DNA of 64,000 nt from Candidatus Latescibacterota bacterium (GTDB taxonomy: Bacteria; Latescibacterota; CBDEFO01): the NCBI GenBank assembly GCA_965248755.1, contig OZ252149.1, positions 2,688,001-2,752,000 on the forward strand, given 5' to 3'. Below are positions 12,566-30,987 of this stretch, piece by piece. The position numbers and the translations under genes were made by a program. The first letter of the stretch is position 1. Each line of letters opens with the position of its first letter. The notes under the pieces were generated by a model. It ran no database searches and was not told the origin of the DNA. It was given only the letters and a program-made list of their open reading frames with translations.

Positions 12566-13274
12566 ACATGATACCTTCCTTTTCGGGATATTCGTCAATC
12601 AATACGCCTGTTTTTCTTTCAGGTTCGTGCATATTAATAGATTTTAAAGCGATTTTGGCATAGAATAAAGTTTTGGTATCAAGTCGATATCTCTAATTGA
12701 GCCTGGCTTTACCCTTTTATTTAGGAAGTCTTCAAAAATCTGTGCTGTAGCCCAAACAAGTTGTTGTTGTTCGTCTTGACCAAAAGGTGGGATTTTATTT
12801 CCGTGGATAAAATCACTTCGCAACTTATAATTATTGTAAACTGTCCAAAAAAATCTCTTCTTATCACTTTTAACTACCTTGGCACAAAAAAGAGCAAGTC
12901 GAATTCGAATTTTTGAAGCCCCTAAACCAGCAAGAGCCTCTAAAGCAGATATACAGTCAAGTAGAGAATCTAACGGCTCGCTACGCCGTGGAGCACTCCA
13001 CCACCTTTGAAAAGCAACTTGTATACGCTTTCCTGTCGGGTGAAAAGCCTTACTTATCCAGTCTTCTATCCGAGCTTTCCGATTTTTGGTTAGTGTATAC
13101 CTGGGTCGGCTTTGGATAAGGTTTTGTGAAGTTGATTCTACGGTTTATACTTCGCTCTAGTCTGTATTCCCACCGTCCTAAAATAAGATCCAACATTTGT
13201 GATACAGTCTCTAATTTATTTGCATTACATACCGCTCCCCTTGACAGAGCGACAAATATTTCGCAAATTGGGGT

Positions 13275-13604
13275 TTGAGAAGGGAGGTCAAGGTGTCGAG
13301 CCCCGAAGTGAAAGATGGTAAGCGCTGGACGGCGACCCGTAAGGGAGAGATTGTGTTGGCTCTTTTGAGAGGAGCAGATCTATCTGAGGTGTGTCGTAAG
13401 AATGGAATTAGCCAGTCGCAGGCGTATGCTTGGCGTGATAGTTTCTTAGAAGGGGGCCAGGAGAGTCTGAAGTCTCGGCGTGGTCGCAAGGATCCGAAGG
13501 AGCGAGAGGTTAGCCGGTTGGAGCGCAAGGTAGGGCAGTTGACGCTCCAGTTGGAGATACTCGAAGAGGTAGCCCGTCTAAAAAAAACGAAGCGGTTGCC
13601 TTGA
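13275..13604 (+). CDS. IS3 OrfA (HTH)
   Basis: Identical to 20249-20578. Confidence 0.9.
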   Translation: MRREVKVSSPEVKDGKRWTATRKGEIVLALLRGADLSEVCRKNGISQSQAYAWRDSFLEGGQESLKSRRGRKDPKEREVSRLERKVGQLTLQLEILEEVARLKKTKRLP

Positions 13605-13704
13605 GTGGGCGGTTTTTGGGTCGAGGCTATTCCCGCAAGGTGGTAGCTTTGGCTTTGGGTTTGCATCGTTCGACTCTGTATAGGTTTAGGGATAGAGGTG
13701 TCAG

Positions 13705-13890
13705 CCCGGATTTACCCGGCCAGGAGTAGGACAAAAATGCCTGCATCACCTCTGACGATACCCCCTTAACCCTTCCACCTAACTCCTGATTGTATTTCTC
13801 AATAAAGTAATCGACAAGGAAAAAGGGAAGGTCCTCGATATGCTCGCGTAGCGGCGGCAGGACGATAGGAACGACGTTAAGGCATAAGAA
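13705..13890 (-). pseudogene. Captured fragment of a sigma54-dependent (NtrC-family) activator gene
   Basis: Minus-strand translation LNVVPIVLPPLREHIEDLP..VDYFIEKYNQELG..VKGVS..YSWPG. Confidence 0.85.
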
Positions 13891-15516
13891 CCGACATTCC
13901 CCATATCACATTCATGAGGGATTATATTTCGATACATTCTTGTTTCTGAATTAATATTACCACTTTTACATTTTTCAACAAGTACTTTTTTCAATTAAAA
14001 TAGTATTTTCCTCTGAATTATCACTTTCTTTGTGTTTAAATCCTCCAATTAGAGACACCTCTCCATCGACTCACAAAAAAATGTGGCAGTTTAAACAGAA
14101 TAACATCGCAATCGTTCAATCCGGGATAATATTTCGGCAAATAACCTCTTGTCTATCCCAACCTCAGCCATTTGAAACGTAATATATCCGCTGTGTCTGA
14201 CAATCTTCGCTCCGATTTTGATAAATTTCACGAGGAGGCTGCGTAGTGACCAGTGTTTGATTTTCTTCGGAAGAACAAAACGTCGCAGGAAGTTGCCCAA
14301 GTTGTAAGCCAGAACAAACAGCCAGAGCCTCACCTGATTGGAGACGAAACGCTTGCATGAGAGTCGGGTCCAGTTCAGAGCATACTTGCCCTCCTTAATC
14401 CACTGCTCAGCTCTGCCACGGCCATTGTAGAAGTGTACCACGCCTTCTGGCTTGGCGCTCATGTTGGTCACGATAAATCCCACTCTTGGGAATAACTCCC
14501 CTTGGTGCCATTCAACCTTGGCGACCACTCGCCTCGATTGATCCCAACTGGCCGCTTTATATTGAAATTCATATAACGATACAATCGGTTTCCTCGGCGG
14601 TCGTCCAACTGGCCGAGTCAGCAGGTATCGTATCTTTTCATAGAGTATCTCATTTGCGGGAAGCCGAATGGCATACAAATAGCCGTTTCCCTCCAGATAA
14701 TCATAAATCTCAGGCTTTGCGAATGCAGCATCGCCTCGAAAGTATTTCCTATTCTTCTTGCTCTCGTATCTCTTGACGATCGGTTCCAGAACTTCCTTCC
14801 AACGATCAGCACTGTGAACATTACCAGAGCGAAGTAGGACTCCTTCACAATCCCCGAACTGATTGAAGCAGAACACTGGATGAAAACAGGTACATCCGAA
14901 ATGACCGTTGTAAGCTGATCCTTCCTGCTGGCCATGTACCGGACTCTCCGAACTGTCCATGTCCAGAATGATTCGTTGATGCTGTGTTTTACTCATCGCT
15001 TTTTGAACCCACTTGCCATTGATATCTGACAAGTTTCTGAGATTGTCATGCTGAGTCAGTATATCAGTTTCAAAACGTCCTATCGTGTTGGAGCTGGCAG
15101 CTTGCCTGCCTTTGTCCTTCTTTCCGGTAATCGCTCGCATGACGGGATCAACGGATAATCGCTCGGCGTCATTTACATCTTCATATCCTGCAAGACGGCT
15201 GTATATCGATTGACGCAGGAGAGTAGATATATCATGTTGGATATTACGGCCTGTGCGTTTATCGGTAAAAACCGCTGATACCGAATCAAATAATCCCAGT
15301 GCGTAATCAAGGTCACGATACGCAAGAAGTCCACCGTTTGATGTCACCTTTGCACCATGAAATTCAAGCTTTATTCCTCCATCAAAACCTACTTTCATTC
15401 TTTCACCCTCTGGATGATCAATATTTATCCGCCATTTATGAGTCTTATTTATTGTAATATAACATGTTCTGGCGACTTTGACAACCATTTTTCGGGTCTA
15501 ATATGGCGAATGGGGG
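13891..15516 (-). mobile_element. IS1380-family element copy 1
   Basis: IRs CCCCCATTCGCCATAT / CCGACATTCCCCATAT; appears identical to 23395-25020. Confidence 0.92.
14091..15488 (-). CDS. IS1380-family transposase (DDE_Tnp_1_4)
   Basis: VTSNGGLL, GYEDVND, LDMDS, RGDAAF, YNGRGRAEQWIKEGK motifs. Confidence 0.95.
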   Translation of the reverse strand: MVVKVARTCYITINKTHKWRINIDHPEGERMKVGFDGGIKLEFHGAKVTSNGGLLAYRDLDYALGLFDSVSAVFTDKRTGRNIQHDISTLLRQSIYSRLAGYEDVNDAERLSVDPVMRAITGKKDKGRQAASSNTIGRFETDILTQHDNLRNLSDINGKWVQKAMSKTQHQRIILDMDSSESPVHGQQEGSAYNGHFGCTCFHPVFCFNQFGDCEGVLLRSGNVHSADRWKEVLEPIVKRYESKKNRKYFRGDAAFAKPEIYDYLEGNGYLYAIRLPANEILYEKIRYLLTRPVGRPPRKPIVSLYEFQYKAASWDQSRRVVAKVEWHQGELFPRVGFIVTNMSAKPEGVVHFYNGRGRAEQWIKEGKYALNWTRLSCKRFVSNQVRLWLFVLAYNLGNFLRRFVLPKKIKHWSLRSLLVKFIKIGAKIVRHSGYITFQMAEVGIDKRLFAEILSRIERLRCYSV

Positions 15517-16281
15517 GTCAGTTCTTCTGTTAAAGAGCCTGTGATAGATGAGGAGCTTGCTTTTCGTATTCGAGGGATACTGGACCAAGAAGAGGCATTT
15601 GGTCACAGGCGGGTTTGGGCGCATCTTCGTTTCAAGGAAGGGGAATGTGTCAACGTTAAGAAGGTTCATAGGATAATGAAGCTTAAGGGGTGGCAGTGTA
15701 AGCTGTGGAATCGTCCCGGGAGAAAGGGGCCACAGGTTGCCCAGAAGCGTTCTGTGGTGGATAGTCCCGACAGTTTGTGGTCGAGTGACTTGACAAAGAT
15801 TTACTGTGGAAAAGATGGTTGGTGTCCTCTTATTGCGGTGGTGGACAACGGAAGCCGGGAGGTTCCTGGGTATCGTTTTAGTCGAAAAGGGAGGGCACTG
15901 GAGGCCACAGATGCCCTGGATCGGGCCGTGATCTCTCGATACACTTCCAAGGAGGCTGTCCCCCAGGGTCTCACTTTGCGCTCTGACAATGGTTCCATCT
16001 TTTTGGCTCGGGCCTATTTGGCCAGTACCGAATATTGGGGAATTCGTCAGGAATACATACCAAGTGGTAAACCCGATTGGAACGGTGTTGTAGAGCGTTT
16101 TTTCAGGACCCTCAAGCAAGAGTGTGTTTGGCTTCACAAGTTTGAATCCTTTGAACAGGCTGAGAAGATCATATCTCAGTGGATCGATAATTACAACAAG
16201 AACAGGCTTCATTCATCCCTGGGATATAAGACCCCAAAAGAGTGGAGAAAACAATTTTATCTACTACCCCAGGTTGCTTAA
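15517..16281 (+). pseudogene. IS3 OrfB 3' part (rve DDE), separated from its 5' end
   Basis: WSSDLT, RSDNGS, VERFFRTLKQE. Confidence 0.9.
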
Positions 16282-16606
16282 TTGGTGTCGCTTTCCTGGG
16301 AAGCAGTACAATTATCCCATCCTTAGCAAACTATATTAGTGTATTTACGTCGTTCTGTTTTACCAAACAACTCAAGACTCATACCAGTATCTTCCCAAGA
16401 GGCAGGAAACATATTGCCTTCTGACTCAAACTCCTTTAATTTCGACATAGGAAACGATTCCAAAGTAATACCTTGGGTAAGGTCTTGCGGCCTTGAAGGA
16501 GGCTTTAAATACCAAACCGGATAAATAATCTGATTAGACATATTGGTTGAAAGCATCTTTATGGACAACTTGGGCCAGGACACTATGCCCTGGCCCTGTT
16601 GTCATT

Positions 16607-20578: not shown

Positions 20579-21438
20579 GTGGGCGGTTTTTGGGTCGAGG
20601 CTATTCCCGCAAGGTGGTAGCTTTGGCTTTGGGTTTGCATCGTTCGACTCTGTATAGGTTTAGGGATAGAGGTGTCAGTTCTTCTGTTAAAGAGCCTGTG
20701 ATAGATGAGGAGCTTGCTTTTCGTATTCGAGGGATACTGGACCAAGAAGAGGCATTTGGTCACAGGCGGGTTTGGGCGCATCTTCGTTTCAAGGAAGGGG
20801 AATGTGTCAACGTTAAGAAGGTTCATAGGATAATGAAGCTTAAGGGGTGGCAGTGTAAGCTGTGGAATCGTCCCGGGAGAAAGGGGCCACAGGTTGCCCA
20901 GAAGCGTTCTGTGGTGGATAGTCCCGACAGTTTGTGGTCGAGTGACTTGACAAAGATTTACTGTGGAAAAGATGGTTGGTGTCCTCTTATTGCGGTGGTG
21001 GACAACGGAAGCCGGGAGGTTCCTGGGTATCGTTTTAGTCGAAAAGGGAGGGCACTGGAGGCCACAGATGCCCTGGATCGGGCCGTGATCTCTCGATACA
21101 CTTCCAAGGAGGCTGTCCCCCAGGGTCTCACTTTGCGCTCTGACAATGGTTCCATCTTTTTGGCTCGGGCCTATTTGGCCAGTACCGAATATTGGGGAAT
21201 TCGTCAGGAATACATACCAAGTGGTAAACCCGATTGGAACGGTGTTGTAGAGCGTTTTTTCAGGACCCTCAAGCAAGAGTGTGTTTGGCTTCACAAGTTT
21301 GAATCCTTTGAACAGGCTGAGAAGATCATATCTCAGTGGATCGATAATTACAACAAGAACAGGCTTCATTCATCCCTGGGATATAAGACCCCAAAAGAGT
21401 GGAGAAAACAATTTTATCTACTACCCCAGGTTGCTTAA
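20575..21438 (+). CDS. IS3 OrfB integrase-core transposase
   Basis: FGHRRV HTH_21-like segment plus DDE motifs. Confidence 0.95.
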   Translation: MSGRFLGRGYSRKVVALALGLHRSTLYRFRDRGVSSSVKEPVIDEELAFRIRGILDQEEAFGHRRVWAHLRFKEGECVNVKKVHRIMKLKGWQCKLWNRPGRKGPQVAQKRSVVDSPDSLWSSDLTKIYCGKDGWCPLIAVVDNGSREVPGYRFSRKGRALEATDALDRAVISRYTSKEAVPQGLTLRSDNGSIFLARAYLASTEYWGIRQEYIPSGKPDWNGVVERFFRTLKQECVWLHKFESFEQAEKIISQWIDNYNKNRLHSSLGYKTPKEWRKQFYLLPQVA

Positions 21439-23394
21439 TTGGTGTCGCTTTCCTGGGAAGCAGTACAATATTTCTTGGGCAGAAAGAATTCTTTTACCGC
21501 CCGGTGAGCACTTCGATAAAGAACAAAAGGTAGTAATAAAATGTTTTGAAACCAAAGATATTCTTGCCTGCCCGGGTAGTGGTAAAACAAAGGCTTTGAT
21601 TGCCAAGTTGTTGATTTTGTCCCGGCAAATGCCTCTTGAAAATAATAGGGGTATTTGCGTATTAACTCACACAAATGTGGCTATAAATGAAATAAAAAGC
21701 CACGCTTACTTTGCTTCTAAAAAGCTCTCTAATTACCCAAATCATTTTGGGACAATTCAAAGTTTCGTGGATAAATATCTTGCGATACCGACGTATATCA
21801 ATCAGTTCAACCGAAGACCATTATTCATAAACAACGAAATTTATCTTGATAGGATGGAAAGAACGAGAAAATATTTAGGTAGAAAAACAAATGCATTTTG
21901 CTATCAGAGCGGTCATAAAGATTTGCCTTATTCACTTAGATTTGAAGATTTTTCCCTGGATGATAATGGTATATGTAAAAGACTTAAATTAGATTCAAAT
22001 GATACAACTCAAAGAGCACACTATGATAGATTGCTAAGACTAAAAGAACGGATACTTTTGGATGGAATACTAAGCTATGATGATGCATATTATATAGCAG
22101 AAAGACACATTGAAAAGCACCCTAATTTGAAAAACGTATTTGCAAAAAGATTTGCCTATGTTTTCATAGATGAAATGCAGGATTCAAGTACAATACAGTC
22201 CGAACTGATGAATAAAATATTCAATGATAATGTTGTTATTCAAAAAATAGGTGATTTAAATCAATCAATATTTGACTATGACCCTAACTTGGAATGCGGT
22301 TGGGCAGTAATTGACGACAGAACTATGTGTATTACAGGTAGTAAAAGATTTTCTAACGCTATAGCAAGCAAGGTTGAAAAACTTTGTGTTTTCCGGCAGA
22401 CAATAACGGGAAATGGCAGGCAAAATGAAATTACTCCTGTTATCATTGTTTATGATGATTATACTATTCAGCAGGTATTAGATAAATTCGGTGAAATAAT
22501 TATCAGAAATAATCTACATCAGAATGAGAAAAGGGTATTTAAAGCAGTTGGATGGCGTGGAAAACCGCATGACACAAAAAGAACTATACCAAGTTATTGG
22601 TGTACTGCTTCCCAGGAAAGCGACACCAATTAAGCAACCTGGGGTAGTAGATAAAATTGTTTTCTCCACTCTTTTGGGGTCTTATATCCCAGGGATGAAT
22701 GAAGCCTGTTCTTGTTGTAATTATCGATCCACTGAGATATGATCTTCTCAGCCTGTTCAAAGGATTCAAACTTGTGAAGCCAAACACACTCTTGCTTGAG
22801 GGTCCTGAAAAAACGCTCTACAACACCGTTCCAATCGGGTTTACCACTTGGTATGTATTCCTGACGAATTCCCCAATATTCGGTACTGGCCAAATAGGCC
22901 CGAGCCAAAAAGATGGAACCATTGTCAGAGCGCAAAGTGAGACCCTGGGGGACAGCCTCCTTGGAAGTGTATCGAGAGATCACGGCCCGATCCAGGGCAT
23001 CTGTGGCCTCCAGTGCCCTCCCTTTTCGACTAAAACGATACCCAGGAACCTCCCGGCTTCCGTTGTCCACCACCGCAATAAGAGGACACCAACCATCTTT
23101 TCCACAGTAAATCTTTGTCAAGTCACTCGACCACAAACTGTCGGGACTATCCACCACAGAACGCTTCTGGGCAACCTGTGGCCCCTTTCTCCCGGGACGA
23201 TTCCACAGCTTACACTGCCACCCCTTAAGCTTCATTATCCTATGAACCTTCTTAACGTTGACACATTCCCCTTCCTTGAAACGAAGATGCGCCCAAACCC
23301 GCCTGTGACCAAATGCCTCTTCTTGGTCCAGTATCCCTCGAATACGAAAAGCAAGCTCCTCATCTATCACAGGCTCTTTAACAGAAGAACTGAC

Positions 23395-25020
23395 CCCCCA
23401 TTCGCCATATTAGACCCGAAAAATGGTTGTCAAAGTCGCCAGAACATGTTATATTACAATAAATAAGACTCATAAATGGCGGATAAATATTGATCATCCA
23501 GAGGGTGAAAGAATGAAAGTAGGTTTTGATGGAGGAATAAAGCTTGAATTTCATGGTGCAAAGGTGACATCAAACGGTGGACTTCTTGCGTATCGTGACC
23601 TTGATTACGCACTGGGATTATTTGATTCGGTATCAGCGGTTTTTACCGATAAACGCACAGGCCGTAATATCCAACATGATATATCTACTCTCCTGCGTCA
23701 ATCGATATACAGCCGTCTTGCAGGATATGAAGATGTAAATGACGCCGAGCGATTATCCGTTGATCCCGTCATGCGAGCGATTACCGGAAAGAAGGACAAA
23801 GGCAGGCAAGCTGCCAGCTCCAACACGATAGGACGTTTTGAAACTGATATACTGACTCAGCATGACAATCTCAGAAACTTGTCAGATATCAATGGCAAGT
23901 GGGTTCAAAAAGCGATGAGTAAAACACAGCATCAACGAATCATTCTGGACATGGACAGTTCGGAGAGTCCGGTACATGGCCAGCAGGAAGGATCAGCTTA
24001 CAACGGTCATTTCGGATGTACCTGTTTTCATCCAGTGTTCTGCTTCAATCAGTTCGGGGATTGTGAAGGAGTCCTACTTCGCTCTGGTAATGTTCACAGT
24101 GCTGATCGTTGGAAGGAAGTTCTGGAACCGATCGTCAAGAGATACGAGAGCAAGAAGAATAGGAAATACTTTCGAGGCGATGCTGCATTCGCAAAGCCTG
24201 AGATTTATGATTATCTGGAGGGAAACGGCTATTTGTATGCCATTCGGCTTCCCGCAAATGAGATACTCTATGAAAAGATACGATACCTGCTGACTCGGCC
24301 AGTTGGACGACCGCCGAGGAAACCGATTGTATCGTTATATGAATTTCAATATAAAGCGGCCAGTTGGGATCAATCGAGGCGAGTGGTCGCCAAGGTTGAA
24401 TGGCACCAAGGGGAGTTATTCCCAAGAGTGGGATTTATCGTGACCAACATGAGCGCCAAGCCAGAAGGCGTGGTACACTTCTACAATGGCCGTGGCAGAG
24501 CTGAGCAGTGGATTAAGGAGGGCAAGTATGCTCTGAACTGGACCCGACTCTCATGCAAGCGTTTCGTCTCCAATCAGGTGAGGCTCTGGCTGTTTGTTCT
24601 GGCTTACAACTTGGGCAACTTCCTGCGACGTTTTGTTCTTCCGAAGAAAATCAAACACTGGTCACTACGCAGCCTCCTCGTGAAATTTATCAAAATCGGA
24701 GCGAAGATTGTCAGACACAGCGGATATATTACGTTTCAAATGGCTGAGGTTGGGATAGACAAGAGGTTATTTGCCGAAATATTATCCCGGATTGAACGAT
24801 TGCGATGTTATTCTGTTTAAACTGCCACATTTTTTTGTGAGTCGATGGAGAGGTGTCTCTAATTGGAGGATTTAAACACAAAGAAAGTGATAATTCAGAG
24901 GAAAATACTATTTTAATTGAAAAAAGTACTTGTTGAAAAATGTAAAAGTGGTAATATTAATTCAGAAACAAGAATGTATCGAAATATAATCCCTCATGAA
25001 TGTGATATGGGGAATGTCGG
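23395..25020 (+). mobile_element. IS1380-family element copy 2
   Basis: IRL CCCCCATTCGCCATAT at 23395; IRR ...ATATGGGGAATGTCGG ending 25020. Confidence 0.92.
23423..24820 (+). CDS. IS1380-family transposase
   Basis: Protein identical to 14091-15488. Confidence 0.95.
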   Translation: MVVKVARTCYITINKTHKWRINIDHPEGERMKVGFDGGIKLEFHGAKVTSNGGLLAYRDLDYALGLFDSVSAVFTDKRTGRNIQHDISTLLRQSIYSRLAGYEDVNDAERLSVDPVMRAITGKKDKGRQAASSNTIGRFETDILTQHDNLRNLSDINGKWVQKAMSKTQHQRIILDMDSSESPVHGQQEGSAYNGHFGCTCFHPVFCFNQFGDCEGVLLRSGNVHSADRWKEVLEPIVKRYESKKNRKYFRGDAAFAKPEIYDYLEGNGYLYAIRLPANEILYEKIRYLLTRPVGRPPRKPIVSLYEFQYKAASWDQSRRVVAKVEWHQGELFPRVGFIVTNMSAKPEGVVHFYNGRGRAEQWIKEGKYALNWTRLSCKRFVSNQVRLWLFVLAYNLGNFLRRFVLPKKIKHWSLRSLLVKFIKIGAKIVRHSGYITFQMAEVGIDKRLFAEILSRIERLRCYSV

Positions 25021-25580
25021 ATAAGTACGAGAAAAAGGTCTCAGCTCAGATTTCTGCTCAACAGGAAGCATTAATGGCGGTGGCTACTGCTCGGGCCAAA
25101 GCGCAGCAGGCCGAGCAGGAAAAGCTGACTAAAGAGGCCGTAGGTAAAGCCAATGTCATTAAAGCCCAGTACGAAAAGGAGGAGGAGAAGATTCGTGCTG
25201 TGGTTGAAGCCCTGCAGGAAAAAGAGGTCGCCGAATTGCGAGCCCAACAGGAGCTTGAGGTAGCCAAGCTGCAGCGGCAGGCCGCAGAACTCCAAAAGCA
25301 GCGCGAAATCCTGCTGGGCCAGGGCGAAGCCGAACGCAAAAGGCTGATAATGAAGGCAGACGGCTCCTTAAAGATAAAGCTTGAGACTTACGAAAAGGTG
25401 ATGAAGTTTTGGGCTGATGCTTATGCAAAACGTCAGGTTCCGCAGCTGGTTATGGGTGGTTCTGGCGGTGCTAGTGGCACCGATCAATCCACTCTAAATT
25501 TCAATTCGGCCATGCAACTTTTGGTGGCAAAACAGCTTGGTCTAGACCTCAACGTGCCCAGAGGGACTGCTGGGAGGTAA
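25021..25580 (+). pseudogene. 3' fragment of a coiled-coil (SPFH/flotillin-like) protein gene
   Basis: Ala/Glu/Lys/Gln-rich coiled coil ending VPQLVMGG; begins abruptly at the IS1380 end. Confidence 0.55.
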
Positions 25581-25593
25581 GGGGTGTGAGATC

Positions 25594-25659
25594 CAGCCTC
25601 TCTTCAAGCGGGCACTGACAATCAGTAAGAAGGTCCTCGGTCTAGACCATCCTAACGTG
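25594..25659 (+). pseudogene. Kinesin-light-chain-type TPR fragment
   Basis: [22 protein letters not shown]. Confidence 0.7.
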
Positions 25660-25684
25660 AAAGTCCTTCGATATGCACTTGAGG

Positions 25685-26082
25685 ACGTCGAAGGGAAACG
25701 CAGGACGGTCTGCGTATCCTCTCAGGTCGGGTGTGCTCTGGGATGCACCTTCTGTTCGACCGCAAGGATGGGGCTGATACGGAACCTCTCTGCCGCAGAG
25801 ATTATAGATCAGCTCATATCCGTCAGGAGACATCATAAGCAGATAGACGACGGCATCACCAACGTGGTGATGATGGGTATGGGAGAGCCGCTCCTGAACT
25901 ACAAAAACGTGGTCAGGGCCATAAGGCTCATGGGTCTGGAGATGGGACTCGGGATCGGCGCTCGCAAGATAACCGTCTCCACGGCAGGATTTGTGCCCGG
26001 CATAGATCGGCTCAGAGATATCTCCGCCGCCTGCGGTCAGCTTATAACACCGGTCCCCAGGCAGGGGGCTGTCATATTTTAA
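25685..26082 (+). pseudogene. rlmN: rlmN (23S rRNA methyltransferase) fragment with internal deletion
   Basis: [30 protein letters not shown] joined almost directly to DISAACGQL. Confidence 0.9.
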
Positions 26083-26208
26083 GTGTCATATACGTGAGCA
26101 CAGAGAGATGTTAGAGCGGATAGAAGATGTGGAAAACCTGGAGATGTTTGAGGAGATGAGAAAGAAGTCCCCTCAATTTCAGGAAGCGCAACAATTTCAT
26201 GAATTAAT

Positions 26209-26234
26209 GTCATTCCCGTGGAAACGGGAATCCA
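26209..26234. repeat. REP-like palindrome GTCATTCCCGTGGAAACGGGAATCC
   Basis: Hairpin ATTCCCGT/ACGGGAAT with GTC leader. Confidence 0.6.
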
Positions 26235-26277
26235 GGGATGCCATGAAACCCTATTACTTGCTAGTTAGCAAATGCGG

Positions 26278-27629
26278 CTGAGTATCTGTTGTTAAAGGCA
26301 GTGGATGAACTGATAGCTTCGAATAAAAATATAAATTTCAAATCAATCTATAACTGGATTTTAAATTACCAACCTTTTTCAAGGGAAAGGGACTGGAAGG
26401 CATCTGCTTTAAATGTTTTATACAAAGTAACTACAGGATCAACAGGCGAGGTTCTGAATTCTGATAGGACAATTGAGATTGAGAAACTTACAGAGAAGCA
26501 GGTTGTATTGGAAATCGGAAGTGTAGGGAGTCAACAGGATAAAAGCTTTTTTGTTCAGACTTTACTTTTAAGGATCTACAGACATTTTTTAAAATTAGGA
26601 AGTTCTAAAGATTTGAGGTTCTCTATCGTTTTGGAAGAAGCACATAATCTCCTTCTAAAACATAAAATAGGTTATGAAAGTGTAACTGAATTAGTCTTAC
26701 GACAGATAAGGGAGTTGGGAGTTGGCTGTATTATAGCAGATCAGCATCCACATTTGATGACACTGCCGGCTATAGCAAACTATGCAACTATATGTATGAA
26801 TTTGAAGACTGAGGAAGATGTTAGGACAATGGCAAATGCTATGCTCTTGGATAAGGAGAGGGATTACATAGGCAGACTTCCTGTAGGATGGGGTATCATA
26901 AAGCTTCAGGATAGATTTTTGAAGCCTTTCTTGGTTAGATTTCCTGAATGTAAGATGGGAGATGGGAAGGTTCCATCTTCATTAAGTGATTTCACAGATT
27001 TCAGTCTTAAGACAGCTGGAGCTGCTGGAAATACAGGGATTTGGCATAGAGATAAACTTAGCAGGAGAGAGAAGGTATTTTTGACAGATATTTTCAAGCA
27101 TCCAGAATCCTATGTTATTGAGAGATATAAAAGGTTAGAGGTAAATCCAAGGGCTGGCAATCAGTGTTTAAAAGATTTGGAGGAGAGGGGATTCATCAAG
27201 CCTGTGTATGTAAGAGTTAAAAGAGGGAAGGTGAAGCTGTTTGACCTCACGGCCCTTGGGAGAGAGTATCTTAAAAAGCTTGGGTATAGAGCATCTAACA
27301 GAAGTGGTGGGGCAGAGCATAAGTTCTGGCAGAGGAAAGTGATGGAGCATTACATTGCAAAGGGTTATAAAGTTTATCCTGAATATTCTGTTGGGGCTGG
27401 GAAGAAGGTTGATGTTGTTGCTGTCAAGGATGGAAGGAAAATAGCGATTGAGATTGAGACCGGGAAATCTGATGCTGTCTCTAATATCGTAAAATGTGTA
27501 AAGGCTGGATTTGAACAGGTAATATCTGTTGCCGTATCCAAAAGACTTAAAGAGGATATAGAAAAAAGCTTAAAAGGGAAAATCGTGGATAAAGTAAAAG
27601 TGGTCTGTTTAAAACGGATTGATCTGTGA
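26278..27629 (+). pseudogene. 5'-truncated HerA/VirB4-like ATPase fused to wHTH and PD-(D/E)XK nuclease domain
   Basis: Walker B IVLEEAH, RQIRELGVG..ADQHP; no Walker A; C-terminal VDVVA..IAIEIETG. Confidence 0.7.
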
Positions 27630-27901
27630 TGGGATGGAACATGTCTTGCGCATTTGGATGGATAATAATGAAGGTGCAAAGTTTCGCCTGTTTTTTCCAA
27701 AACCTTGAAACTACTCTGGATCTCAGTGCATCGGACCAGTTGAAATCGAAAGAATTAAATACCTGGAATCACAACCTTTAAAACAGGAGTAAACTTCATT
27801 CTCTTTTATTACCCTTCAAGCCAGTAGCCCTCCGGTGGCTCTTTGTCTTCAAGGGTAACTTAGGGGGAACTTTTAAATAGAAGCTATACTTTCCCAATTG
27901 T

Positions 27902-29113
27902 ATGAAGCAAACAATTATAGATATCCATAACTTTGCACAAAAAGAACAGACAGCCAGAAAACATTTACTTGAAGCAGAAATATCTAATAGAAGTAAGGAA
28001 CTGATTTTAGAGTTCATAGATGACCTGGAATGCAGTGGAATGGGAAAAGCAAGAATTGTAAAGACAATTTCTATGGTGAAGAATATTGCAATGAAATTGA
28101 AAAAGGGGTTTCCATCAGCAGATGAAAATGATCTGAAGAAGTTTGTGAAGTCGATTCAAAACAATGGTTTTTATTCTGCCTGGACAAAGCAGGATTACAA
28201 CAAGGCGTTGAAGAAATTCTACAGGTGGCTCATAGGGAAAGGTTACACAAAAGTTGATGTTGAGTGGATACCAATAACGATGAAGTCAAAGGATAAGCCA
28301 AAACTCAAAAGAAGTGAGCTTCTAACAGAAGAGGAAGCGCATAAGGTTGTGGAGGAATGTGAGAATGCAAGGGACAAGGCATTGATATCCTTGATATGGG
28401 ATACTGGTGCAAGGATAGGAGAGATAGGTTCTATGACGATTGGCAGCGTACATTTTGAAGATGGTGGAACACTTGTGGATCTTAAAGGCAAGACAGGAAG
28501 CAGGACAGTTTTTGTTATTGAGAGCACACCACATCTGTTGACATGGCTCAAGCTTCACCCCTTCAAGGACGATCCAAAGACTCCCCTGTGGGTGACCATG
28601 GGACAGGATAGGATACACAAATATAAGCCGTTAAGATACCGGACATTCTACAAAATATTTGAGAGGTCTTTCAAAAAAGCTGGAATAAGGAAATCCTGGA
28701 ACCCGCATCTGTACAGACATTCTCGGGCTTTATGGTGTGTGCTGAATAACTGGAACACTATTATGGCCAACAAGTTCTTTGGCTGGGCAGACAACAGCAA
28801 TATGTATTCTTACTACGTATCTTTGGCTAATGAAGATGTGAAAGAGAAGATGATGCAGAGCTATGGGATAAGCACGAAGAAGGAAGATGAACTGGAAAAG
28901 AGAAAGCCGAAAATATGTGCCAGATGTGAGGCTTTGAATCAGCCCAAAGTGAAATTCTGCTATAGATGTGGTATGGCGATAGATCTAAAGACTGTGTTGA
29001 GCTTAGACGAGCAACGGAAGGCTTCTGATGAACTGATGAACGCACTTGTGAAAGATCCTGAAGTTCAGAGGATTCTTGTCAACAAGATCAGGGAAATGAG
29101 ACTAAGGGTGTAA
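27902..29113 (+). CDS. Tyrosine recombinase/integrase with C-terminal zinc ribbon (archaeal type)
   Basis: TGARIGE (R), KGKTG (K), PHLYRHS (HxxR), GW...YV (Y); CARC...CYRC. Confidence 0.9.
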   Translation: MKQTIIDIHNFAQKEQTARKHLLEAEISNRSKELILEFIDDLECSGMGKARIVKTISMVKNIAMKLKKGFPSADENDLKKFVKSIQNNGFYSAWTKQDYNKALKKFYRWLIGKGYTKVDVEWIPITMKSKDKPKLKRSELLTEEEAHKVVEECENARDKALISLIWDTGARIGEIGSMTIGSVHFEDGGTLVDLKGKTGSRTVFVIESTPHLLTWLKLHPFKDDPKTPLWVTMGQDRIHKYKPLRYRTFYKIFERSFKKAGIRKSWNPHLYRHSRALWCVLNNWNTIMANKFFGWADNSNMYSYYVSLANEDVKEKMMQSYGISTKKEDELEKRKPKICARCEALNQPKVKFCYRCGMAIDLKTVLSLDEQRKASDELMNALVKDPEVQRILVNKIREMRLRV

Positions 29114-29274
29114 TCTAGTATTCACATTTTCTGAGTCTTACTGTTTTTGACCTTTTGACCCTGCCGGCTTTTTGTAAAGAACCCATCGTTTCTTTGTCCC
29201 TCCCCATTTCACGCCCCAATTCATACCCAACTACGTGGAAAGTTGTTATATACTTCTGGCTCTCACCTCCTTTT

Positions 29275-29382
29275 ATGGCATCAGAAAAAGAGAAGGAGAT
29301 ATTCAGCCACCTTCCGGAGTGGATGAAGATATTAAACGATATGACCAAGGAGATTGAAGAACAAGAATCTGAAAAGTACTAA
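29275..29382 (+). CDS. Small hypothetical protein
   Basis: MASEKEKEIFSHLPEW...; TATA-like box about 23 nt upstream. Confidence 0.4.
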   Translation: MASEKEKEIFSHLPEWMKILNDMTKEIEEQESEKY

Positions 29383-29493
29383 AATGCTCTTATATCCTAA
29401 ATTTCAGGGGAATTGTAAATCGAACTTCTATGGAAAGCCTTTTGAAGCTATTGATTATCTTTCTCTTAGTTTATACAACGCAGGAGTGATAAA

Positions 29494-29682
29494 ATGACAA
29501 AAGTAATTGACCCAAACTTTGAAACCTTTGGATGGAAAACCCATGTTAGAGAAAGAAGAGGTTCGTTTAAGATTACTATAAACAATCTGATAGCTGTGGG
29601 GGCAGGACTGAAACACGGACAGCCCCTGTACTGCTATGTTGCCAAAGATAAGGATGGCAGGACCTTAATTGTAATATATCCG
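29494..29682 (+). pseudogene. Small AbrB-like hypothetical gene truncated at the transposition-unit end
   Basis: GGAGTGA RBS; GSFKITI..GLKHGQ..LIVIY then runs into IS3 sequence. Confidence 0.45.
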
Positions 29683-29782
29683 CTGACACCTCTATCCCTA
29701 AACCTATACAGAGTCGAACGATGCAAACCCAAAGCCAAAGCTACCACCTTGCGGGAATAGCCTCGACCCAAAAACCGCCCAC

Positions 29783-30112
29783 TCAAGGCAACCGCTTCGT
29801 TTTTTTTAGACGGGCTACCTCTTCGAGTATCTCCAACTGGAGCGTCAACTGCCCTACCTTGCGCTCCAACCGGCTAACCTCTCGCTCCTTCGGATCCTTG
29901 CGACCACGCCGAGACTTCAGACTCTCCTGGCCCCCTTCTAAGAAACTATCACGCCAAGCATACGCCTGCGACTGGCTAATTCCATTCTTACGACACACCT
30001 CAGATAGATCTGCTCCTCTCAAAAGAGCCAACACAATCTCTCCCTTACGGGTCGCCGTCCAGCGCTTACCATCTTTCACTTCGGGGCTCGACACCTTGAC
30101 CTCCCTTCTCAA
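29783..30112 (-). CDS. IS3 OrfA
   Basis: Identical to other copies. Confidence 0.9.
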   Translation of the reverse strand: MRREVKVSSPEVKDGKRWTATRKGEIVLALLRGADLSEVCRKNGISQSQAYAWRDSFLEGGQESLKSRRGRKDPKEREVSRLERKVGQLTLQLEILEEVARLKKTKRLP

Positions 30113-30987
30113 ACCCCAATTTGCGAAATATTTGTCGCTCTGTCAAGGGGAGCGGTATGTTGGGACGGCTACTCCAAAGAAATAAAAGTTAAAAAAACTG
30201 AATTTAGTAATCTAAAAAGTTATTTAGCTCCACAATCTGATAGTTTTATTTCATCTAATGGAGTTAATTTTTACAAGAAGAGGTTAGGGGAAGCTTTCTT
30301 AAAGTGCTTAAGAATTGCAGGAGTAACTGACGATGGAAGGGCATTCACAGAGAAAAAACTGCATAAATATATATCAGAAAAAAACTCGGATTTTTACCAG
30401 GATTTTAGGGTAAGGCTCGCCAATTGGTGTTTGAAGATACACAGGCAAGAAGAAGTTTTTGAAGAAATAAAACATTATCTAACCAATGAATTTAAGGAGT
30501 TTTTTAATTATCAGGTGAATGTTGAACTTACAATCTTTATAAATTCATCAGATTTGGAAGCGGATGATGAAGAAACCCATTCGAGCAATAACATCTACAA
30601 ATATTCTTCTGGAACAACTGATATCGACATAGAAGTTTCAACTATTCATGGTGTCAAAGGCGAAACCCATACGGCAACATGTTACCTTGAAACTTTCTTT
30701 TATGACTATGACATTAAGCGAATAATAAATTATATAAAGGGAGAGCATACTAAGCCAAAAGAAAGAGTAATTCAAAATCTAAAAATGGCTTTTGTAGGGA
30801 TGTCACGTCCATCTCGTCTCCTTTGCATTGCGGTTCATAAGGATAGTATTACCGGACAAGAAGAAGCACTGCAGAGAAGTGGTTGGGATGTTAATAAGGA
30901 ATTGTTAGCAGGTAGTAATAACTGAAACAAGAAGGCTATTTATAATCGAAGATAGGTGCGATAATCGAAGATGGGTGGTTGCCATAT

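Follow-up and report, generated by a model that had tools for sequence, protein, structure and literature searches.

How does an integrase gene that looks archaeal come to stand inside a bacterial transposition unit? The question is raised by a 64,000-nt stretch of DNA (the window: contig OZ252149.1 of assembly GCA_965248755.1, positions 2,688,001 to 2,752,000) from a Candidatus Latescibacterota bacterium, in which a block at 26278/9-29682 carries a truncated HerA-like ATPase gene, a tyrosine integrase gene and two small open reading frames (ORFs) behind an insertion sequence (IS) of the IS1380 family. The left limit of the block, 26278, is the divergence point of two other IS1380 units, and 29682 is the end of the unit. 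The initial annotation took the block for archaeal mobile-element DNA brought in by IS1380. We consider it probable that the block is a fragment of an integrative element, holding an integrase module of Nanobdellota type that likely came from an excised circle unable to dock, and that it was copied here by one-ended IS1380 transposition. The tree, the distribution of the family, the conservation of the promoter and an attachment (att) core of tRNA-Thr type support an archaeal origin of the integrase module; for the ATPase gene, they give no support to an archaeal assignment, its family being mixed-domain. The parts are each of known kinds. Most transfers from archaea to bacteria have been deduced from protein trees, long after they happened. 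In this case the vehicle, the archaeal promoter, the unused docking site and the bacterial transposon are all readable, so that direction and route become testable.

The host genome (G000, contig C1) is a single contig of 4.54 Mb with one bacterial 16S gene, a tmRNA and 47 tRNAs; it is metagenome-derived and IS-dense, with 98% completeness and 4.8% contamination. The GC content of the block is 0.393 vs. 0.489 for the genome, below 99.8% of 1335 windows. No TATA-binding protein (TBP) was found in the genome by a search that detected four archaeal controls. Two unpublished genomes enter the comparisons: G168, which supplies locus L006, an L023-like leaf, the control for transcription factor B (TFB) and TBP, and the centre of the Nanobdellota samples; and G567, which supplies leaf L160. 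Neither the sister clade L005/L019 nor the tRNA matches described below depend on these two.

The integrase, its relatives and its promoter

The integrase ORF is open over 403 aa and ends in a CxxC...CxxC zinc ribbon, as initially annotated. Its catalytic set (R171, E174, K197, H269, R272, W295 and Y305) is intact, invariant or nearly so in 35 sequences, and supplies the R, K, HxxR, H/W and Y of a tyrosine recombinase (PF00589). Archaea supply most of the named matches; the best 120 of 269 include one Omnitrophica and one Poribacteria record. The closest integrase is P0002, with 78% identity; the best metagenome locus is L019 (54%), and the best genome loci, both at 46%, are L005, on an archaeal bin contig, and L006, on a Woesearchaeota contig with TFB. 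The record title of L005 (G169) is that of an archaeon; we take its contig, titled Methanosarcinales, to be Woesearchaeota-like by gene content, in a 1.4 Mb bin that is possibly mislabelled. A family profile built from the 22 closest integrase sequences, the protein of G168 among them, had matches at E<=1e-60 in 75 of 401 Nanobdellota genomes; among the other genomes of the host phylum it had matches in 3 of 167, at E<=1e-25. Viral contigs yielded only two distant integrases, and a single-protein scan of the genome contig collection gave no matches.

An IQ-TREE analysis of 44 rows picked from 162 (LG+G4; unrooted, many leaves unlabelled) placed the window integrase with P0002 as sister to a clade with L005 and L019 (support 100/99), and this pairing nests inside a 100/100 group with L023; a FastTree of all 162 rows agrees with this placement. 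Judged from these alignments, the integrase nests among archaeal-hosted integrases. The homologue check proposed in the initial annotation came out archaeal for the integrase, and mixed-domain for the ATPase. The host-phylum integrases fall in three separate places among the archaeal ones, and their joint grouping was rejected (p-AU 3e-9), the group having been named after the FastTree had been seen.

The gene is preceded by GGGGGAACTTTTAAATA, which ends 22 nt 5′ of the ATG with no Shine-Dalgarno (SD) sequence in between, as had been reported, and which is predicted to be an archaeal leaderless-type promoter with a B recognition element (BRE) and a TATA-like box. The sequence TTTAAATA, at this 22-nt distance, is kept in the clade of the integrase and rare in the host. 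The same TATA box lies 22-25 nt upstream in 8/8 examined loci of the clade, and also upstream in two host-phylum integrase loci; among distant Nanobdellota integrases with a called start it was found in 2 of 11, several having an SD instead, in a survey whose script called no start in 19 of 41 loci. Strict TTTA[AT]ATA with its end 20-27 nt upstream of the first ATG was found for 3 of 2351 host ORFs, two of them being the two copies of this integrase gene, and for 0 of 2351 at a control offset, vs. 15 of 196 ORFs at Nanobdellota loci, all counted with crude ORF starts and with different length cut-offs (>=200 aa in the host, >=120 aa in Nanobdellota). The consensus of the BRE upstream of archaeal TATA boxes is cRNAAN; the window has GGGGGAACT at this position, L019 has GGGGAAAAA, and L130 and L131 have CGAAAGC.

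Two further signals had been pointed out downstream. The element GAAAG-ttg-TTATATA, with a 3-nt gap, does end 22 nt before the ATG of the 35-aa ORF, but it fails the strict consensus because it reads GTTATATA. The sequence GGAGTGA is present 4 nt 5′ of the last ATG of the block; it is, however, not the archaeal hallmark that it had been taken for, because the 3′ tail of the host 16S is GATCACCTCCTT and GGAGTGA is ordinary upstream of host ORFs (9 occurrences, and 18 of GGAGGTGA, n=2351).

Could these motifs be chance AT-rich sequence before an ordinary bacterial XerC-like integrase? The block is indeed AT-rich, and a TATACT hexamer lies at 27885-27890. We regard this as hardly credible, since the box is rare in the host and its position is kept in the clade, since the best NCBIfam model is an archaeal one (XerA, below its cut-off) and the Atlas clusters of the integrase are 75-100% archaeal (a lead only), and since both the tree and the tRNA core contradict it. 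In G041 and G043 (L135:4390-4440, L136:11200-11250), a perfect 9-bp inverted repeat flanks the integrase TATA box and ends at the ATG, possibly as an autoregulatory or att arm site.

A tRNA-Thr core upstream of the integrase gene

The sequence CCCTCCGGTGGCT at 27828-27840 is identical over its 13 nt to the 3′ end of Nanobdellota tRNA-Thr(TGT), and is flanked by inverted arms (27809-27820 and 27847-27858) that are complementary at 11 of 12 positions. In 161 Nanobdellota genomes the 13-mer was found twice, both times at a tRNA 3′ end, while controls gave 0 matches; one of these tRNAs is called Thr-TGT, and the other is intron-bearing with a TGT anticodon by eye. None of the 47 host tRNAs matches the core, the best reaching 9/12. 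At L005 and L019 (the latter read by eye), an intron-bearing tRNA-Thr lies directly upstream of the integrase, and the stretch of core, arm and TATA box agrees with L019 in register at 38 of 52 nt; the 30 matches in the first 44 nt were reached by 0 of 100000 shuffles. No match to the core-plus-TATA pattern was found in viral contigs.

In the window, a 12-nt arm replaces the rest of the tRNA, and the element's own ATPase gene precedes this arm, which points to an attP. We infer that the core and its arms are the junction of an excised circle, one that would never have been used in this host. Archaeal integrases favour tRNA genes, according to the account in PMC8371274, and the putative att core beside this integrase gene is identical to a tRNA 3′ end. 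The module thereby offers an uncharacterised integrase family, common in Nanobdellota, with a predicted 13-nt tRNA-Thr target.

Comparison with the tRNA-targeting tyrosine integrases of archaea (XerA/XerC/pNOB8 and SNJ2), as far as they are described in PMC8371274 and PMC5861418, shows the same SAM-like plus Phage_integrase architecture and an att site outside the gene; the SNJ2 core, also a tRNA 3′ end, has 14 bp, and the core in the window 13. The set R-E-K-H-R-W-Y is unlike that of SNJ2, pNOB8 (YxxR) and SSV (KxxR), and the C-terminal zinc ribbon and the att site 5′ of the gene differ from classical archaeal integrases, as does the location in a bacterial chromosome without a matching tRNA. 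Three identities were considered and rejected: archaeal XerA (NF040815), which scored 101.5 bits vs. a cut-off of 220; the SNJ2 type, because E174 and W295 are kept, whereas SNJ2 has changed E/D-I to G/A and H/W-III to A/V (PMC5861418); and the pNOB8 or SSV type, because the protein has H269-x-x-R272 and no YxxR or KxxR, with the core upstream of the ORF (PMC5861418). Elsewhere in the host genome, two near-identical tRNA-Leu(CAA) genes at 499142 and 3780577 suggest an integration site.

One-ended transposition and the donor copy

The block does lie in an IS1380 transposition unit, as initially claimed. Of the 47 full copies of the element in the genome, 15 are plain insertions flanked by a 5-bp duplication; among the rest, many have downstream passengers in common. 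The unit at 23395-29682 consists of the element plus 4662 bp and is bracketed by CTGAC within an IS3 copy, the empty site of which occurs 51 times in the genome; it is a one-ended IS1380 transposition unit. The same 6288 bp are found at 1,274,927-1,268,640 of the genome, without a target-site duplication (TSD), and the two 3404-bp copies of the block have 0 differences. The second copy is longer (1,274,927-1,266,500), the block continuing about 2.2 kb past its end in the window with the whole 71-aa gene, ORFs of 147, 132 and 284 aa and a DUF488-N3a gene, and it closes at a repeated IS end, presumably of IS256 type. This longer copy is the donor of the window copy; its left flank was not found in the sister species (G001). 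Two other IS1380 copies have the first 1258 bp in common with it and differ beyond that point, which indicates that the ATPase gene was first hit by a smaller unit. The putative surrogate end resembles the right inverted repeat (IRR) at 7/14 positions, a common level of similarity, since >=7 was scored by 246 of 4666 passenger positions.

ISEcp1 units show matching one-ended behaviour in the account of PMC12589106, with a 14-bp left inverted repeat, a 5-bp duplication, variable length and nested passengers, all as here, and with a degenerate surrogate IRR, for which the 7/14 end is the candidate here. Unlike ISEcp1, the present unit carries archaeal-type element DNA and no resistance gene, and it resides in an environmental host with 47 copies (PMC12589106).

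Another possibility is an assembly chimera of archaeal and bacterial DNA, affecting the whole block or only its window copy, given an IS-dense, metagenome-derived genome with its level of contamination. Public contigs from four runs of one sample bear on this. The donor form runs through the block in 4/4 runs, and a contig of 5607 bp in three runs, and of 5177 bp in the fourth, links the bacterial passenger to the far end of the donor. Junction 26278/9 is bridged by 53 nt in one run and by only 30 nt in three; the window junction 29682/3 is bridged in none of the four runs' contigs, which show presence, not absence. Contig depth fits two copies in 1/4 runs only. Against a chimera stand the exact 5-bp duplication at a site found empty 51 times, the passenger-ATPase join, identical in two places and bridged by a contig, the contig reaching the donor's far end, and remnants of related DNA in this genome and its sister species. 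The exactness of the duplication speaks for a real window copy, which may be present in part of the population, and we consider a chimera unlikely, to the point of giving it very little weight.

Around these copies, further structure was observed. A tRNA-Arg(CCG) gene at 1235704, followed by an integrase gene, probably marks the left boundary of the island in which the donor copy lies. The window has two inverted IS3 copies 6 kb apart (13227-16312 and 22601-30160), each with an IS1380 unit inserted at the identical base with the same CTGAC, the cargo being 186 bp in one and 4662 bp in the other; these are the only 2 occupied sites vs. 51 empty ones. The IS3 composite splits a multi-copy UvrD-like helicase gene (21281-22600 and 30160-30925) with a 4-bp duplication; 7 intact joins exist elsewhere, and the module is found in up to 15 fragments.

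Table 1. Features of the IS1380 unit and the IS3 copy around it (window coordinates)
Feature	Position	Strand	Basis or remark
IS3-family element, distal part, interrupted by the unit	22601..23394	-	rve/HTH_21 Pfam; 51 exact empty-site copies in genome
Left 5-bp target duplication CTGAC	23390..23394	+	
IS1380-family element, 1626 bp	23395..25020	+	PF13701 E 2e-128; 47 full genome copies
IS1380 transposase ORF	23423-24820		
Earlier-captured bacterial passenger, gene fragments	25021..26278	+	found behind 4 IS1380 copies
Radical-SAM fragment within the bacterial passenger	25657-26082		
DUF87/HerA-like ATPase-wHTH-nuclease-like gene, C-terminal ~450 aa	26279..27629	+	
attP-like site, 12-nt inverted arms round 13-nt core	27809..27858	+	putative att role
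Predicted archaeal BRE/TATA-like promoter of leaderless-type integrase gene	27863..27879	+	clade conservation, rarity
Tyrosine integrase, 403 aa, C-terminal Zn ribbon	27902..29113	+	
Second TATA-like box, weaker	29238..29252	+	
35-aa ORF, HxPxW motif	29275..29382	+	like ORFs adjoin related integrases
Shine-Dalgarno GGAGTGA, valid in either domain	29483..29489	+	
First 63 codons of 71-aa beta-rich protein, cut by unit end	29494..29682	+	whole in donor copy
Putative surrogate right end used by IS1380	29669..29682	+	7/14 like true IRR
Right CTGAC (29683-29687) and IS3-family element, proximal part	29683..30159	-	

Companion genes, bacterial relatives and a proposed route

The initial annotation also took the HerA-wHTH-nuclease fusion for an archaeal trait, which was not borne out. 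In the window ATPase about 180-200 aa are missing from the N terminus, Walker A among them, and the N-terminal half was not found in the genome by tblastn with nine relatives; full-length relatives of 600-700 aa carry PF01935 and have 40-44% identity, and the domain matches in the window copy are weak ones to PadR and REase only. Among labelled relatives, an Aenigmarchaeota and a Planctomycetota record both have 40% identity. At E<=1e-8 the ATPase family was detected in 11 of 167 host-phylum genomes, with a best value of 1e-74, and at E<=1e-15 in 24 of 301 Nanobdellota genomes, with a best value of 9e-54, the host-phylum scores exceeding those of the sampled Nanobdellota. In its tree, archaeal and bacterial labels interleave and the window copy stands among unlabelled rows, and the family appears to be mixed-domain. 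The integrase and ATPase families are linked on two Nanobdellota contigs.

Small ORFs with HxPxW occur at five related integrase loci, two bacterial (L130, L131) and three of Nanobdellota (L146, L151, L159). The best matches of the 71-aa protein are Nanobdellota (42-47%), with 39-40% to G049, and its family was found in 11 of 281 Nanobdellota genomes by the 147-aa query. Its predicted fold (pLDDT 68, best Z 3.8) gave no Foldseek match, and Pfam only weak B3/DUF1905 hints; an AbrB-like label is unsupported. The 284-aa protein had no match in viral contigs, and an Atlas query with the 147-aa protein returned uninformative scores of 0.8. The downstream genes of the donor have bacterial relatives, and the element is a mosaic.

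Related DNA is also found in bacteria. Six short stretches of the host genome are remnants of a related element, at 81-89% identity; in three of them the DUF488 end adjoins the ATPase linker, as expected from a circle with an internal deletion. The sister species shares such remnants, one at 96%, and G050 has fragments at 76-78%. The 5.7-Mb chromosome of G049 carries two elements with 147-aa, 132-aa and ATPase homologues and another integrase type, one integrase having a bacterial SD. In G041, G043 and G002, whose bins are fragmented, the integrase family lies on contigs with bacterial-type genes; the G041 and G043 integrases are 76% alike and have CGAAAGCTTTAAATA 25 nt upstream, and G002 links its integrase with a 284-aa homologue, Cdc6 and a cohesin/Por-tail protein. 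Element-type DNA has reached the host phylum several times, separately. On G002 contig C141 (L134:11940-12986), Orc1/Cdc6 lies near the archaeal-type integrase, and the 284-aa protein has an RNase H fusion form.

These bacterial occurrences could mean that an element family of archaeal ancestry is now resident in bacteria or shuttles between the domains, so that no recent cross-domain event is needed; the TATA box and the tRNA core would then survive as relics or have another role. The G049 elements with their SD-led integrase, the box kept in G041 and G043, the linkage in G002 and the remnants common to the host and its sister species all favour it. The host-phylum integrases, however, do not form the joint group, the core has stayed identical to an archaeal tRNA end while the host offers it no target, and the + strand at 27600-29700 has no sigma70 promoter that could be found; we therefore hold residence to be unlikely.

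Several observations weigh against the cross-domain origin that we prefer. The closest integrase, P0002, comes with no host assignment; the arm hairpin is no more stable than that of shuffled sequences (z -1.3); the donor is not bracketed by a TSD, a partner for one having been sought in the host genome and not found; and the window junction is missing from the contigs, as described above. The ATPase tree, for what its labels allow, does not group the window copy with archaea, the 284-aa gene of the donor has relatives of 55-73% in 3 of 167 host-phylum genomes and in 0 of 281 Nanobdellota genomes, and the remnants in the host, its sister species and G050 (76-89%) indicate that related DNA has a history in bacteria.

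On the preferred cross-domain reading, the integrase would have inserted the circle at a tRNA-Thr 3′ end in archaea, transcribed from its leaderless TATA promoter. An excised circle would then have entered the bacterium, which offers no matching tRNA to dock at, and an IS1380 unit landing in the ATPase gene would have fixed the downstream DNA in the chromosome. This fixation may have been IS1380 capture from the free circle, which is plausible, or illegitimate integration followed by IS erosion, and we give the two about equal chances. A second IS1380 jump would have made the window copy. The claim of inter-domain transfer by IS1380 holds only for the step within the chromosome: there IS1380 copied, and may have rescued, DNA that was already in the cell, but it was not the carrier from one domain to the other. 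The integrase is probably a silent passenger, its ORF being intact probably because the event is recent.

The case gives good evidence that such elements probably cross from archaea to bacteria. A bioRxiv study (10.64898/2026.05.20.726742) describes cross-domain protein clusters on small circular elements, which Nanobdellota/Micrarchaeota have in common with Omnitrophota/Patescibacteriota. There, as here, mobile DNA links DPANN archaea with bacteria, both domains being interspersed in gene trees; the part of that study at hand rests on protein clusters, whereas here the cis-signals (tRNA core and TATA box) give a direction and the fixing step is visible. A literature search covering few subscription journals, with supplements unopened, returned no account of an archaeal attP-promoter-integrase module fixed by IS1380, and the available part of PMC8138268 names no such group. 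It is rather doubtful, though conceivable, that small integrative elements circulate generally between DPANN archaea and co-occurring bacteria, with undockable circles rescued by resident ISs and this phylum hit at least four times; if true, IS1380-type one-ended transposition would be a general landing route for archaeal DNA.

Two minor observations concern the host genome. A gene pair at 1259275-1259971 (L074:276-972), of 91 aa and 139 aa with CxxC motifs, has no Pfam or NCBIfam match; to us it has the look of an archaeal-style toxin-antitoxin system. A secreted-protein cassette recurs at four or more loci (~989000-997000, 1260400-1266300, 2910400-2924300 and 3038900-3041200), often beside element remnants, and its genes presumably encode a protein with a C-terminal sorting tail, a large TPR-like protein, a HEAT-like protein and a variable protein of ~180 aa.

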